Notes under the pieces: generated by a model
The model's input: only the letters and a program-made list of their open reading frames with translations
Database searches by the model: none
Told to the model about the DNA's origin: nothing
Position numbers and translations under genes: made by a program
Shown: one piece after another, positions 5,439 through 13,144 of the stretch
Numbering within the stretch: the first letter of the stretch is position 1
Layout: every line of letters starts with the position of its first letter
IMG/VR virus record: IMGVR_UViG_2541047722_000003
Length of the DNA stretch: 13,144 nucleotides
Direction: 5' to 3' (one strand)
Origin: a virus
Taxonomy: Duplodnaviria > Heunggongvirae > Uroviricota > Caudoviricetes

Positions 5439-5492
5439 TGAACCGCCCCGGGAATCCTGGAGACTAAACTTCCTGAGAAAGAGGTAAACAGG

Positions 5493-5819
5493 ATGACTAA
5501 AAATACTCGTTTTTCCCCCGAAGTCCGTCAACGGGCAGTCCGTATGGTTCTGGAAAGTCAGAGCGAATATGACTCACAATGGGCGACAATTTGTTCCATT
5601 GCTCCAAAGATTGGCTGTACGCCGGAGACTCTGCGTGTCTGGGTTCGCCAGCATGAGCGGGATACCGGGGGCGGTGATGGAGGGCTCACCACCGCTGAAC
5701 GTCAGCGTCTGAAAGAGCTGGAACGTGAAAATCGTGAACTGCGCCGCAGTAACGATATCCTTCGCCAGGCTTCCGCTTATTTTGCGAAGGCGGAGTTCGA
5801 CCGCCTCTGGAAAAAATGA
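5493..5819 (+). CDS. IS629 OrfA (transposase N-terminal helix-turn-helix component)
   Basis: 108-aa ORF with a GAGG Shine-Dalgarno. The sequence [22 protein letters not shown]...[33 protein letters not shown] has the leucine-zipper-like end typical of IS3-family OrfA. Confidence 0.9.
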
Positions 5820-6706
5820 TGCCACTGCTGGATAAGCTGCGTGAGCAGTACGGGGTCGGACCGCTATGCAGCGAACTGCATATTGCCCCGTCAACGTATT
5901 ACCACTGTCAGCAACAGCGACATCATCCGGATAAACGCAGTGCCCGTGCGCAGCGCGATGACTGGCTGAAGAAAGAGATACAGCGCGTATACGATGAAAA
6001 TCACAAGGTATACGGTGTGCGTAAAGTCTGGCGTCAGTTGTTACGGGAAGGTATCAGAGTGGCCAGATGCACTGTGGCACGTCTCATGGCGGTTATGGGA
6101 CTTGCCGGTGTTCTCCGGGGTAAAAAGGTCCGTACGACCATCAGCCGGAAAGCCGTTGCCGCAGGCGACCGCGTAAACCGTCAGTTCGTGGCAGAACGAC
6201 CTGACCAGCTGTGGGTGGCTGATTTTACTTACGTCAGCACATGGCGGGGCTTCGTCTATGTGGCGTTCATCATTGATGTGTTTGCCGGATACATCGTGGG
6301 GTGGCGGGTCTCATCGTCCATGGAAACGACATTCGTGCTGGATGCACTGGAGCAGGCGTTATGGGCCCGTCGACCGTCCGGCACGGTCCATCACAGTGAT
6401 AAAGGTTCTCAGTATGTATCGCTGGCCTACACACAGCGGCTTAAGGAAGCCGGATTACTGGCATCAACAGGAAGTACAGGCGACTCGTATGACAACGCGA
6501 TGGCGGAGAGCATCAATGGTCTTTACAAAGCGGAGGTAATACACCGTAAGAGCTGGAAAAACCGTGCAGAAGTGGAACTGGCCACACTCACGTGGGTGGA
6601 CTGGTATAACAATCGACGATTGCTGGAAAGGCTGGGCCATACTCCTCCGGCAGAAGCAGAAAAAGCTTATTATGCTTCCATCGGAAACGATGATCTGGCA
6701 GCCTGA
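5816..6706 (+). CDS. IS629 OrfB (transposase catalytic DDE domain), expressed as an OrfAB fusion by -1 frameshift
   Basis: 296-aa ORF in the -1 frame relative to orfA, overlapping the orfA stop at the A-rich stretch tggAAAAAAtga (5808-5819). Contains DDE-type integrase motifs ([23 protein letters not shown]). Confidence 0.9.
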
Positions 6707-6748
6707 GTTCACAGATAAAACACTCTCCAGGAAACCCGGGGCGGTTCA

Positions 6749-8229: not shown

Positions 8230-9424
<1,195 letters not shown>

Positions 9425-9428: not shown

Positions 9429-9445
9429 CTGTGAATAATCCATTG

Positions 9446-9622: not shown

Positions 9623-10029
9623 TCGTACCTCCTGTCGGTAAATCTGACACCCTGACCAATAGCCCATGCTGTTGTGTACTCGATCAGACTTGCCATACGC
9701 TTCACACTCATCTGCGCGCTGCTTTCGCGAATGTTGACGTATTCGCCTTCAAGCCCGGGCAAAACATCAGCTTCCTGTTTTGTTGCCACTGCATGACCGC
9801 TGATCAACAAAACCTTCCATTGTTCTGGTTTTAACCATTTATCGCGCCACTGAACTTGCCTAGCGATATCTGCGACCATCGCGTGAAATTTTGCGTTCTG
9901 GTCAAGGTTGCGCTTGTAGTCAGTAATGCGGATGGTGACTGGCTTGTCTTTATCGAGTGGTGTTGCGAGGATGGCATTTATTGCAGCTTGCTGTTGTTGC
10001 TTAGTTCGGAGGAATATTGTTTGCTTCAC
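9619..10029 (-). CDS. ninB: NinB-like recombination protein (lambda Orf family)
   Basis: 136-aa ORF with a GTG start at 10029 preceded by an AAGGAG Shine-Dalgarno. The block [26 protein letters not shown] parallels the SLDQNRKLWACLGDVSRQVEWHGRWL block of lambda NinB as recalled. Position downstream of the replication genes fits. Confidence 0.7.
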
Positions 10030-10040
10030 TGAATACTCCT

Positions 10041-10226
10041 TTATTTTTTATGCCTGTAACCCCATTCTTCCAGCAACCTTGCGGCGTACCACCCAAGAAA
10101 CAAAGGAAAGAACATTACAATGAGATATTTCCCGCCACGGTCAATGTTCGAAATTGACCAGATTACGATGTAACCAGTGCAGGACAGGAATATTACAAAC
10201 CCCAAAAAGCTACTTCGTCGACTCAT
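10041..10226 (-). CDS. Small membrane protein (about 61 aa, two predicted transmembrane segments), function unknown
   Basis: ATG at 10226-10224 with an AAGGAG Shine-Dalgarno 5 nt upstream; the tracked GTG at 10232 is too close to that Shine-Dalgarno. Two hydrophobic stretches (FLGFVIFLSCTGYIVIWSI and YLIVMFFPLFLGWYAARLL) and a charged C-terminus (EEWGYRHKK). Confidence 0.55.
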   Translation of the reverse strand: MSRRSSFLGFVIFLSCTGYIVIWSISNIDRGGKYLIVMFFPLFLGWYAARLLEEWGYRHKK

Positions 10227-10228
10227 GC

Positions 10229-10543
10229 TCACTCCTTCACTTTGATTCCAGCGGCGCGGATAGCCTCTACATCGCTTTCGTATTGCGATTCTGCACCTGA
10301 GTCATAGCCAATGTGATAATCACCGGGAAGTGGGCCTTTCTTTGGCTTTTGCAGCTCAATTTCAATAGCTGCTCTCGATGCCTGCCACGTTTGCCAGTGG
10401 CCTTGAACATCGTCCATCACGTATTGACCACCAATATCACCACTGCCAATTTCATGGTGATTTTCAGGGTAACGGATAAGGTCTGAAGATTCGCCCCCCA
10501 CGTCGTAACCAACTCTCTTCAAACTGGCATCTGCTTTCGTCAT
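10229..10543 (-). CDS. Hypothetical acidic protein (104 aa) with an internal GYD-x-G-(A/G)ES repeat; may be the downstream part of a frameshifted gene
   Basis: ORF with a weak ribosome-binding site whose first 80 nt overlap the preceding Cys-rich ORF in another frame. Contains repeated VGYDVGGESSD / IGYDSGAESQYESD motifs and a net acidic charge. Confidence 0.4.
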   Translation of the reverse strand: MTKADASLKRVGYDVGGESSDLIRYPENHHEIGSGDIGGQYVMDDVQGHWQTWQASRAAIEIELQKPKKGPLPGDYHIGYDSGAESQYESDVEAIRAAGIKVKE

Positions 10544-10646
10544 CTTTCATAAGGCAGTCACATTCAATAAAAATCGGCTCTCCCCAAGGAGTAGAACCTC
10601 CGCTATCACACATTCCTGTGTTATTGCACTTTTGGCACTTGCTCAC
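10464..10646 (-). CDS. Small Cys-rich protein (60 aa), putative zinc-binding, function unknown
   Basis: GTG start at 10646 with a GGAGG Shine-Dalgarno 5 nt upstream. Six cysteines including CQKC and CDC pairs. The 3' end overlaps the 104-aa ORF across a C6/G6 homopolymer (10494-10499). Confidence 0.5.
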   Translation of the reverse strand: MSKCQKCNNTGMCDSGGSTPWGEPIFIECDCLMKDDESRCQFEESWLRRGGRIFRPYPLP

Positions 10647-10658
10647 ATTAACCTCCGA

Positions 10659-10865
10659 TTAACTCACAAAACGCCACGCCACTTTTGCTACGACAACAGG
10701 CATAACACCGATAATCACCCACAGAAAAATGCTACCGAAAAGCACACCAACCAGGTCTTTACCTTCGCCTACCAACCGGACAAAACTGCTGGCAACCACA
10801 ATGAACGTCGCCACCATCCACATAGCACCGAGAATCCTCAATGCAGAAAAAATCAACTCAACCAC
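10659..10865 (-). CDS. Small membrane protein (68 aa, two predicted transmembrane segments), function unknown
   Basis: GTG start at 10865 preceded by a GGGGGAGGG Shine-Dalgarno. Almost entirely hydrophobic (LIFSALRILGAMWMVATFIVVASSF ... VLFGSIFLWVIIGVMPVVVA). First gene after the tR2-like terminator. Confidence 0.5.
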   Translation of the reverse strand: MVELIFSALRILGAMWMVATFIVVASSFVRLVGEGKDLVGVLFGSIFLWVIIGVMPVVVAKVAWRFVS

Positions 10866-10880
10866 GATTTACCCTCCCCC

Positions 10881-10911
10881 AAATAAAAAGGCCTGCGATT
10901 ACCAGCAGGCC
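10881..10911 (-). terminator. Rho-independent terminator downstream of the helicase gene (lambda tR2 equivalent)
   Basis: 7-bp perfect stem GGCCTGC (10890-10896) / GCAGGCC (10905-10911) with an 8-nt loop, followed on the minus-strand transcript by UUUUUAUUU (complement of 10881-10889). Confidence 0.65.
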
Positions 10912-10937: not shown

Positions 10938-12314
10938 TCATACGTCAGCCCCTTGTGCATATCGTCTGCCACGCGCAGCAGGTGCATTTGATGCTGTGCA
11001 AATCTGTCTGGCTTCATCCTGGTCACATGCAACAAAGTGTCCGTTGCAGAACCGCTGGTAAACCGTACCAAGTGAGCCAAAACGGTTTTTCGTCACGATG
11101 ATTTCAGCAAATGGCGCGGCGCTACTGTTCTCGTCATATACCGCTTCCCGATAGAGCATGATGATTGAGTCTGCGTCCTGTTCAATGCTTCCTGAATCAC
11201 GCAAATCTGCGTTTGTCGGGCGTTTGTTTGGTCGCTTCTCAACATCGCGTGAAAGCTGACTCAGGGAAATAACCGGTGTTTTCAGGTCTTTCGCCATCGC
11301 CTTCAGGCTTCCGGAGATGTGAGCAATTGCGAGGTCGTTGCGGTCTGCTTTCGGCTTCTCAATCAGGCCAAGATAATCCGCCATGATGAGTGAGAGGTTT
11401 GGATTTTCCTGTTTGTGCCGTTCTGCGATTGAGCGTATTTCTTCGACCGATAATCGCGAGGCATCGACTACCCATACATCCAAATCTGCAAGCTGACTCA
11501 TGCCGTTAGCAACACGTGCCCAGCCCTCGTCATCCATCGATGCAGGATTTCGCAGTACGCTAACCGACATCCTCCCGGCGTTGGCAATGCTTCGCTCTGC
11601 AATCTGCAATGCGCTCATTTCCATTGAGAAAATCAATACCCCGCGCCGGACGTCAGAACCAGGAATAACGCGGCTTGCAACGCCTTCGGCAATCTTCAGC
11701 GCCAGTTCGGTTTTCCCCATACCAGGACGAGCAGCGATTATCACCAGGTCTTCCGCGTTCATCCCTCCGGTGATGGCATCAAGTTCTTCGATTCCGGTCT
11801 TCAGGGTATCGGACTCTTCTCCGTTCCTCAGACGCCTGTCAAGCGTGTCAGTGTAGTCGGTGATGATTTCCCCTAACCGTACAGGTTTAACCTCGTCACG
11901 GGGCTTTCTGATGGCTGAGAGACGTTTTACAAGTTCATCCATCGCCTGACTCGATGCGTCGATGGTTCCGCTTTGGATTGGTTCACGCATTTCATCCATG
12001 ATTTCCAGCACCAGACGGCGGTGATAGTTATCCGCGACCATTCCGGCATATCCCTTCAGGTTTGCGGCGCTCGGGCAGTTTTTGCTGGTCATCAGGATTG
12101 ACGTGAAATGCTCCTCTCCGCACGCCTCGGCAACCATCAGCGCGTCGATTAGGTTTCTGTTTCTCGCCTGCTTCCGGATAACCTCGAAGGCTTTCCGGTA
12201 GAGCGGAATTGAAAACGCTTCCGGCTCCAGCGTTGCAAGAACGTCACTGGCGGTTGGAGTTAATCCACCAATCAGCAGGCCACCGATAACGCTCGCTTCG
12301 ATATCCTGTCTCAT
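10938..12314 (-). CDS. Replicative DNA helicase, DnaB-like (P22 gene 12 type)
   Basis: 458-aa ORF. Walker A ARPGMGKT, then LIFSMEMS, and an [12 protein letters not shown]...[21 protein letters not shown] block typical of DnaB-family helicases. ATG overlaps the stop of the upstream replication gene (ATGA). Confidence 0.88.
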
Positions 12315-13042
12315 GCAATCCCCCTGTCTGCAAACTTCCCTTCCCGAACTCCCGTTAACGAGTCTTCTCTCAGCAGGTAATCAAAATCAGCCGTCCAGCC
12401 CGTGTCGTTGTCTCCGAAGTAAAACGGCTTGGCCTGATGCACAAACGCCCTGACATACGCTCTGAAACCGTCCACGTTTGGCGTTTTCAGTTGCGGGATG
12501 ATTTTCTTCAGGCGGCGTTTTCGTTTCTCGTTGACCGCAACAGCGTGTGGCAGTCTGTCACCGACTTCGGTGTTGTAGGCGTTCAGGAAGGATTCGTAGT
12601 CGATTCGTTCTGCCTTGCGACGTTCAGGTTTAACCTGCCCATCGCCTCCCCCATTGGGGGGTAGGGGGGTATTATTTATATTCTTGTTAATACCTTCTTG
12701 TTCATGATGTGCGGTTGTTTGTGCGGCTTCATGTGCGCTTTCATGTGCGGCATGTACGCTGAAAGCCGCGCTATTGCTGGCTTCATCATGTGCGGCATCA
12801 TGTGCGGTTGTTTGTGCGGCTTCATGTGCGGGTAAATTGTCCATTTTTTGAGCATATTCATGGTAATTTGTGATGGTTATCACACGGCCTTTTTGCTTCT
12901 CTCCATCAATGGAGATCATCCCCTCTTTCACAAAAACCTGAAGCATCCGCTCAACCTGATCACGGCTTGCTGGCTTGCCATGTCTGTCGCATAACTGAAG
13001 ACCTAAATCAGCTGCTGTCACAACCAGTTGACCGGGTTGCAG
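12311..13042 (-). pseudogene. Replication initiator (lambda O / P22 gene 18-like), 5'-truncated by IS629
   Basis: The frame is open from the IS629 junction (13042) down to the TGA at 12311-12313 with no stop; the tracked GTG at 13021 is probably not the native start. Contains an embedded iteron array and an adjacent AT-rich tract, as in the lambdoid ori-within-O arrangement. Translationally coupled to the helicase. Confidence 0.6.
12703..12831. repeat. Putative origin-of-replication iteron array inside the initiator gene
   Basis: Nine copies of a 12-bp unit with core (C/T)ATGTGCGG in two blocks (12703-12759 and 12784-12831), including a 35-bp higher-order repeat (12705-12739 vs 12797-12831, 2 mismatches). 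Followed in the direction of transcription by an AT-rich tract (12671-12700) and a G/C-rich run (12655-12669). Confidence 0.6.
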
Positions 13043-13144
13043 TGAACCGCCCCGGGTTTCCTGGAGAGTGTTTTATCTGTGAACTCAGGCTGCCAGATCA
13101 TCGTTTCCGATGGAAGCATAATAAGCTTTTTCTGCTTCTGCCGG
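13043..13144 (-). mobile_element. Partial IS629-like element, right end in inverted orientation; the body lies downstream of the window
   Basis: The reverse complement of 13043-13144 is identical to 6647-6748 of the complete IS629 copy. Begins with the terminal TGAACC and abuts the truncated replication gene. Confidence 0.9.

Follow-up and report, generated by a model that had tools for sequence, protein, structure and literature searches.

The question raised by this locus is whether a cluster of short repeats, embedded in the disrupted replication gene of a prophage, is the place where replication of that phage began. An earlier note, made from the sequence of the window (the whole stretch of viral DNA analysed here, 13,144 bp), had read these repeats as a candidate lambdoid origin. 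Our analysis strongly suggests (with a probability of about 0.85) that positions 12669-12831, on the minus strand, are the replication origin of a CUS-3-type P22-like prophage, within the stretch of an O-family initiator gene that codes for the linker. For lambdoid phages, an origin inside the initiator gene is textbook knowledge, and this arrangement is already well known. The type of repeat is new to the literature that we found: our search returned nothing specific on the CCGCACA repeats or on an origin of CUS-3, and the CUS-3 record annotates none. The repeat type is widespread, occurring in CUS-3-like phages, in many Stx2a-converting phages and in prophages of at least 12 Enterobacterales genera.

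A repeat array in a disrupted initiator gene

The array lies in a lambda-O-family initiator gene, of which the 3' 243 codons and the stop are present (12311-13042, minus strand). This fragment is 100% identical to codons 73-315 of CUS-3 O, and 97.5-98.5% identical to O of the phages HF4s, Gally and JEP4 and of 48 Stx2a-converting phages. The full gene has 315 codons; the missing codons 1-72 encode the first part of the DNA-binding domain. CUS-3 O, the full-length homologue, matches the Pfam family Phage_rep_O (PF04492) over residues 20-132 (E 3e-15; 56.9 bits against a cutoff of 28.7) and also the PHROG “replication initiation O-like”, while NCBIfam and PDB sequence searches with the full-length protein found nothing. 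The truncated open reading frame of the window has no Pfam match, because half of the domain was lost with the insertion. Residues ~143-192 are encoded by the repeats, which are thus placed between Phage_rep_O and the C-terminal domain. Overlapping the initiator stop codon by 4 nt is an intact, P22 gp12-like gene for a DnaB-type replicative helicase (10938-12314, minus strand), which we infer to be the partner of the initiator's C-terminal domain.

At 13043 the initiator gene gives way to the end of a 1310-bp IS3-family element (13043-13144, plus strand; inverted repeat TGAACCGCCCCGGG...), which is identical to the copy at 5439-6748. The initiator had been described as 5'-truncated by IS629. 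An IS3-family element does stand here, and codons 1-72 are gone on this side of it, as is the upstream promoter region of the origin; however, the window ends inside the element, and the gene may equally well be interrupted rather than truncated. The name IS629 fits in both length and family. A search of 5,426 complete E. coli genomes found no copy of the junction between the element and O (12880-13144).

The prophage is P22-like and heavily decayed. The IS3-family element is present in three copies (1-96, partial; 5439-6748, full; 13043-13144, partial) and bounds the window at both ends. The full copy interrupts the gene for the terminase large subunit, where it is flanked on both sides by the same 4 bp of CUS-3 sequence (21509-21512), and an ALIL frameshift pseudoknot (Rfam RF01497) lies within it at 5774-5890. 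Where CUS-3 has its lysis genes, Q and most nin genes, there is an IS5-like DDE transposase gene (PF01609, DUF772; ORF 8376-9392, minus strand, within 8231-9423), and CUS-3 22990-28441 is absent. Between a ninE-like remnant and the helicase gene, positions 9623-10909 have no CUS-3 alignment at megablast level and hold a different set of nin-region genes. With lysis, Q and most nin genes gone and O codons 1-72 missing, the prophage is decayed, its initiator is inactivated, and the origin is a relic.

The array itself (12703-12831, minus strand) comprises eight 12-bp units, four on either side of a 33-bp spacer. Their core is the 7-mer CCGCACA (TGTGCGG on the plus strand). In gene orientation, the promoter-proximal block (12784-12831, minus strand), whose units are presumed initiator-binding sites, reads CCGCACATGAAG (12831-12820), CCGCACAAACAA (12819-12808), CCGCACATGATG (12807-12796) and again CCGCACATGATG (12795-12784). 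The AT-tract-proximal block (12703-12750, minus strand) reads CCGCACATGAAA (12750-12739), GCGCACATGAAG (12738-12727), CCGCACAAACAA (12726-12715) and CCGCACATCATG (12714-12703). The spacer (12751-12783, minus strand) consists of AAGCCAGCAATAGCGCGGCTTTCA, which carries the motif CCAGYAATGRCGCGGCT, and ends in a ninth, degenerate unit, GCGTACATG (12759-12751). All units are head-to-tail direct repeats without dyad symmetry; a repeat search found no inverted repeats within the array, and the two blocks are 81 bp apart from start to start.

These coordinates refine the earlier description of the array. The nine units in two blocks are better given as eight good units and one degenerate copy. The distance of about 92 bp between blocks corresponds to a segment of 35 bp, 97% identical, that both blocks contain at an offset of 93 bp, but the gap between the blocks themselves is 33 bp. 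The 9-mer core originally proposed, (C/T)ATGTGCGG, has an exact match in only four units, and the 7-mer describes the core better.

We find that clustering of the core is pronounced. Seven of the eight exact copies of CCGCACA in the 13,144-bp window fall inside 124 bp of the array, and CGCACAWRA occurs six times against 0.76 expected, a count reached in 0 of 200 shuffles. The array is an iteron cluster well beyond chance, as in a lambdoid O-gene origin.

Past the array, in the direction of transcription, an AT-rich stretch is followed by a G/C run, as had been reported; the gene is on the minus strand. The AT-rich tract (12669-12702, minus strand; GAACAAGAAGGTATTAACAAGAATATAAATAATA in gene orientation) is the presumed DNA-unwinding element and also the junction of the N- and C-terminal modules discussed below. 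Positions 12669-12710 are 78-81% A+T, and by nearest-neighbour energy every 30-mer and 40-mer elsewhere in the window is more stable (z 4.3 and 4.2, respectively). Thus, a prediction of unwinding places the lowest duplex stability directly beside the array. The G/C run (C6-TA-C6-AAT-G5 at 12646-12669, minus strand; C5-ATT-G6-TA-G6 at 12648-12669 on the plus strand) encodes PLPPNGGG. It had been proposed as part of the origin; we assign it to the C-terminal, P22 gp18/HK97-type module, of which it is the opening part, and not to the iteron module. It shows no special structure: as a single-stranded DNA hairpin, its predicted folding is no stronger than that of shuffled sequence (z -0.21).

Repeat specificity and the case for an origin

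Homologues of the gene were taken from 7 phages and from 36 genome loci across Enterobacterales, and their linkers were laid out from the I-T-N-Y anchor. In the repeats of these homologues (L011-L038, compared with the window), two core classes can be told apart: 23 loci have CGCACA, and nine have CGCGCA in most units and CGAGCA in some. Core type is largely uniform within a locus, and the difference between the classes is synonymous. The core class pairs without exception with the residues at positions 82 and 100 of the initiator (A82/D100 with CGCACA, S82/H100 with CGCGCA), a co-variation that rests on few independent changes, in repeats that can homogenise by recombination. Two loci of different class, L024 (G class) and L006 (A class), have the first half of the N-domain in common, and only the helix-turn-helix half tracks the repeat class.

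An AlphaFold (AF2) model of a single-block variant predicts a folded N-domain up to residue ~137 (pLDDT 67-88), a disordered region at 138-186, with pLDDT below 30 in the repeat-encoded linker, and a helical C-domain. Residue 82 lies in a helix at 82-87 and residue 100 at the start of a helix at 99-111, and a beta hairpin or wing spans 115-129. In this predicted form, the model shows the N-domain to be a winged helix-turn-helix. A Foldseek comparison of the model with the PDB returned non-significant matches only (best E 0.066), mostly to winged-helix proteins, which is a weak hint. We suggest a candidate recognition rule, by which D100 or H100 pairs with A or G, respectively, at core position 4; the rule is directly testable by mutagenesis.

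Initiators with more distant N-domains (47-52% identical) keep the two-block layout and have other 12-bp units (e.g., CCATCCGATGAA, GTCGAA/GACGAG, GAGGTAACAAAC, and CCGATACAC), with other residues at 99-100. The iteron sequence is specific to the N-domain and is inherited with it.

The same association is seen in the way that these genes are recombined. HK97, P22-like phages and other phages match the window only from 12685 downstream, at 96.8% DNA identity through the helicase gene. Klebsiella and Yersinia phages match only 13042-12675, at 79% and 73%, respectively; past 12675 they carry a lambda-type C-terminal half, which starts with a near-copy of the lambda ori palindrome GAGAATTCTGGCGAATCCTCTGAC and is followed by a lambda-P-type loader gene. 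In the genome loci, this N-domain with its repeats is combined either with a PF06992 lambda-P-type loader or with a DnaB-type helicase. Mosaic junctions fall at 12675, 12685 and 12703. So the N-domain and repeats form one module, and the C-domain and its partner another, joined at the AT tract. This is as expected if the repeats are the target of the N-domain.

Several observations therefore count for the origin reading. The host gene belongs to the O family, a helicase gene lies next to it, and the repeats have the same position as in lambda, HK97/P22 and phage L. Selection at the DNA level (described below), the co-variation of core and helix-turn-helix, the modular exchange, and the placement of the least stable AT tract count in the same direction.

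Under the origin reading, and by analogy with lambda (PMC7466680), the winged-helix N-terminal domain of the initiator would bind the eight head-to-tail CCGCACA units. The direct-repeat geometry makes head-to-tail binding probable: the N-domains probably sit head to tail at 12-bp intervals, with successive proteins spiralling around the helix. The resulting complex of initiator and array would destabilise or open the adjacent AT-rich tract, and the C-terminal domain of the initiator would recruit the DnaB-type helicase that the phage itself encodes just downstream. For lambda, work cited in PMC7466680 gives two iterons plus the AT tract as enough for unwinding. This makes it plausible that natural single-block variants of the array are also working origins.

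What the window preserves, then, is a prophage in which an insertion sequence has put the replication module out of action. Since codons 1-72 of the initiator have been removed, the origin cannot be fired by a cis-encoded protein. Its description as orphaned in the earlier note agrees with our analysis: the IS3-family element disrupts the initiator and leaves no intact copy encoded in cis. It is unlikely, if conceivable, that the orphaned origin is not inert. It might act as a decoy that titrates the initiator of related phages and slows them, or it might fire in trans and amplify the surrounding chromosome. For this, the eight intact units and the unwinding tract would have to be recognised by the initiator of an incoming or co-resident phage of the same specificity. 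Candidates are the CUS-3-like isolates and the 48 Stx2a-converting phages, which have O genes 97.5% identical and identical cores.

The repeats could also be bound by the initiator mainly for autoregulation or copy control, by titration or handcuffing, with initiation taking place elsewhere in the phage genome. Both roles, replication and copy control, are served by the repeat arrays of iteron plasmids (PMC4980987, PMC5397158). We nevertheless regard this explanation as improbable, because the array directly adjoins the least stable duplex of the window and the order is that of the lambda ori, iterons and then AT tract. Moreover, the chimeras with a lambda-P-type loader have the near-copy of the right-hand palindrome of lambda ori, GAGAATTCTGGCGAATCCTCTGAC, after the array, and no second cluster of the core is present in the window or in the CUS-3 genome.

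Less probable again is that the initiator is uninvolved, and that the repeats are bound by some other phage regulator or by a host factor, or exert their effect as RNA. A second factor could be indicated by the central spacer, which is kept independently of unit type. Its motif CCAGYAATGRCGCGGCT (window 12760-12783; L048:3678-3706) is present in every O subfamily examined, even with unrelated units, including the linkers of L007, L008 and L040-L046 and that of phage L (23% protein identity). The motif does not co-vary with the A/G core class, and its wobble positions vary. Its conservation may reflect a peptide motif or the site of a factor shared by origins of this class. The idea that the spacer holds an inverted degenerate unit (CCGCGCC, other strand) as a further initiator site was rejected on the same absence of co-variation. 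The units, however, do co-vary with the initiator's own helix-turn-helix residues and with N-domain subtype, which argues against a protein other than the initiator. Scans of the array region found no Rfam family and no promoter-like site, and terminator-like sites were no more frequent than in shuffled sequence, none being convincing. There is no DnaA box within 3 kb of the array; the sole DnaA-box-like site in the window is at 9430. We thus favour the initiator as the protein that reads the repeats, and an origin as their function.

DNA-level constraint within the linker

A 12-bp unit is also four codons, and the array is translated as a repetitive Ala/His-rich linker, just as the earlier note had given it. 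We find repeats in every homologous initiator gene, at exactly the same position; none lacks them, and such a lack had been named as evidence against an origin. In homologues with at least 66% N-domain identity, the units occupy fixed codon positions, counted from the I-T-N-Y anchor. The promoter-proximal units lie at positions 15, 19, 23 and 27; the 3+3 form has units at 15, 19, 23 | 38, 42, 46, and the 4+4 form at 15-27 | 42-54. The step between the blocks is always 45 bp.

The conserved bases of the units include wobble positions and span codon boundaries. The base before the Ala codon (unit position 1, the wobble position of the preceding codon) is C in 206 of the 206 in-register units from 32 distinct loci, which are related, so that the counts are not independent events. 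The codon that ends in this invariant C encodes any of eight amino acids (P, A, S, T, G, N, C or Y). Little or no variation is seen at unit positions 1, 2 and 5, while positions 8-12 vary freely. The Ala codon of the units is GCA in 149 and GCG in 41, and never GCC or GCT, whereas the N-domains of the same genes use all four (GCT 103, GCC 88, GCA 83 and GCG 61). For His/Gln, 197 units use CAT or CAA and three use CAC. Invariant wobble positions combined with variable amino acids are the opposite of what selection on the protein would leave, and a purely coding-driven repeat is excluded on this ground. On the sequence comparison, then, selection at the DNA level acts on the 7-bp core. The encoded linker is predicted to be disordered and can tolerate such a constraint. 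What looks like an Ala/His-rich “low-complexity” linker in these initiators is in fact a DNA element, a point that matters for genome annotation.

Close homologues from E. coli, Salmonella and E. albertii prophages (P0001-P0073) differ almost only in repeat copy number. Proteins with one block are 264/284 aa (three units) or 268 aa (four units) long, those with two blocks 295/315 aa, with three 326/346 aa, and with four 357 aa; an expanded left block gives 319 aa. This pattern points to frequent unequal recombination within the array. Since close homologues with a single block of three units exist, the two-block form is not obligatory.

It is very unlikely that the array is only a coding-driven expansion, that is, a flexible Ala/His-rich linker produced by replication slippage in functionless DNA: a unit length that is a multiple of 3, a linker predicted to be disordered, and a copy number of one to four blocks in close homologues would all be expected from slippage or unequal crossing-over, but the C is kept in 206 of 206 wobble positions despite eight residues, Ala is never GCC or GCT, the choice of GCA or GCG is near-uniform per locus (one exception each in L006 and L029), the unit tails and their encoded amino acids vary freely, and N-domain subtypes have unrelated units at the same position.

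Relation to known phage and plasmid origins

Iteron-plasmid origins typically have direct repeats of 17-22 bp outside the rep gene, together with DnaA boxes. The array of the window differs from an origin of the RepA, pi or TrfA type in each of these respects, with 12-bp units inside the gene and no nearby DnaA boxes.

The likeness to the lambda ori is closer. Lambdoid origins have iterons and an AT tract in the middle of O, where each iteron is an inverted repeat bound by an O dimer (PMC7466680). The lambda record annotates four ori iterons inside gene O, followed by an AT-rich stretch and a palindrome, and our repeat finder recovered these as 20-bp units spaced 20, 24 and 23 bp. The earlier note had compared the array to this arrangement. 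The comparison holds for the place inside O and for the adjoining AT tract, which are shared with the HK97/P22 type as well, but not for the geometry of the units. In both lambda and the window, the repeats lie inside a PF04492 initiator gene, between the DNA-binding and C-terminal domains, and are followed by an AT tract. In both, repeat specificity travels with the N-domain, and the Klebsiella and Yersinia relatives join a CGCACA array directly to a lambda-type C-terminal half. However, lambda has four ~19-bp inverted-repeat iterons, while the window has eight 12-bp head-to-tail units with a 7-bp core, arranged in two blocks that lie 45 bp apart on the two sides of a conserved spacer. Four to six such inverted-repeat iterons, about two helical turns apart, are thus not what this array contains, and with 12-bp units that lack dyad symmetry, the lambda binding mode cannot simply be copied. 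The partner also differs: a phage DnaB-type helicase in the window, and a P-type loader of host DnaB in lambda.

Lambda-type iterons are also found in the Stx phages 933W and P27, which have six; their copy number in O varies, and the length of the protein linker varies with it (PMC7466680). This copy-number variation parallels the one-to-four-block variants of the window's array, although the iterons of the Stx phages are palindromic and their O and P proteins are of lambda type. A paper on phage epsilon34 was rejected as a precedent because it concerns a lambda-type O.

P22 gene 18 and HK97 O are the nearest relatives of the C-terminal half. From the AT tract on, this half and the helicase gene are 96.8% identical to those of the window, and gene order is the same. 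In the N-domain, in contrast, there is no relationship at the DNA level, and the four repeats, each of ~18-20 bp, are palindromes with lambda-like spacing: HK97 gene O, which is of the P22 gene 18 type, has four 18-bp palindromic units ATTAGCCAAGTCGGCTAA in the same place, spaced 20, 24 and 23 bp. Repeats of the P22 gene 18/HK97 type were noted earlier (PMC8022706).

The array geometry resembles that of phage L more than that of lambda. Gene 18 of phage L contains a putative ori of six imprecise 11-bp repeats, TGTCCAACGGA (GenBank MW013503 rep_origin; PMC8022706), an origin that is itself a prediction only. As in the window, it lies inside an O-like gene with a DnaB-like helicase gene next to it, and it consists of three units, a spacer containing CCAGTAATGACGCGGCT, three further units and an AT-rich tract, 22 bp of which are common with the window. 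It differs from the window in its period (11 bp rather than 12), in its unrelated core and in its 3+3 units, and the two proteins are 23% identical. The bipartite layout of the phage L type, with a spacer carrying CCAGTAATGRCGCGGCT, is found in the window (12703-12831 and 12669-12702, compared with L048:3651-3780), where the spacer reads CCAGCAATAGCGCGGCT, with two differences. Thus, with a core of its own and a period of 12 bp, the array of the window joins the phage L-like bipartite class as a further member.
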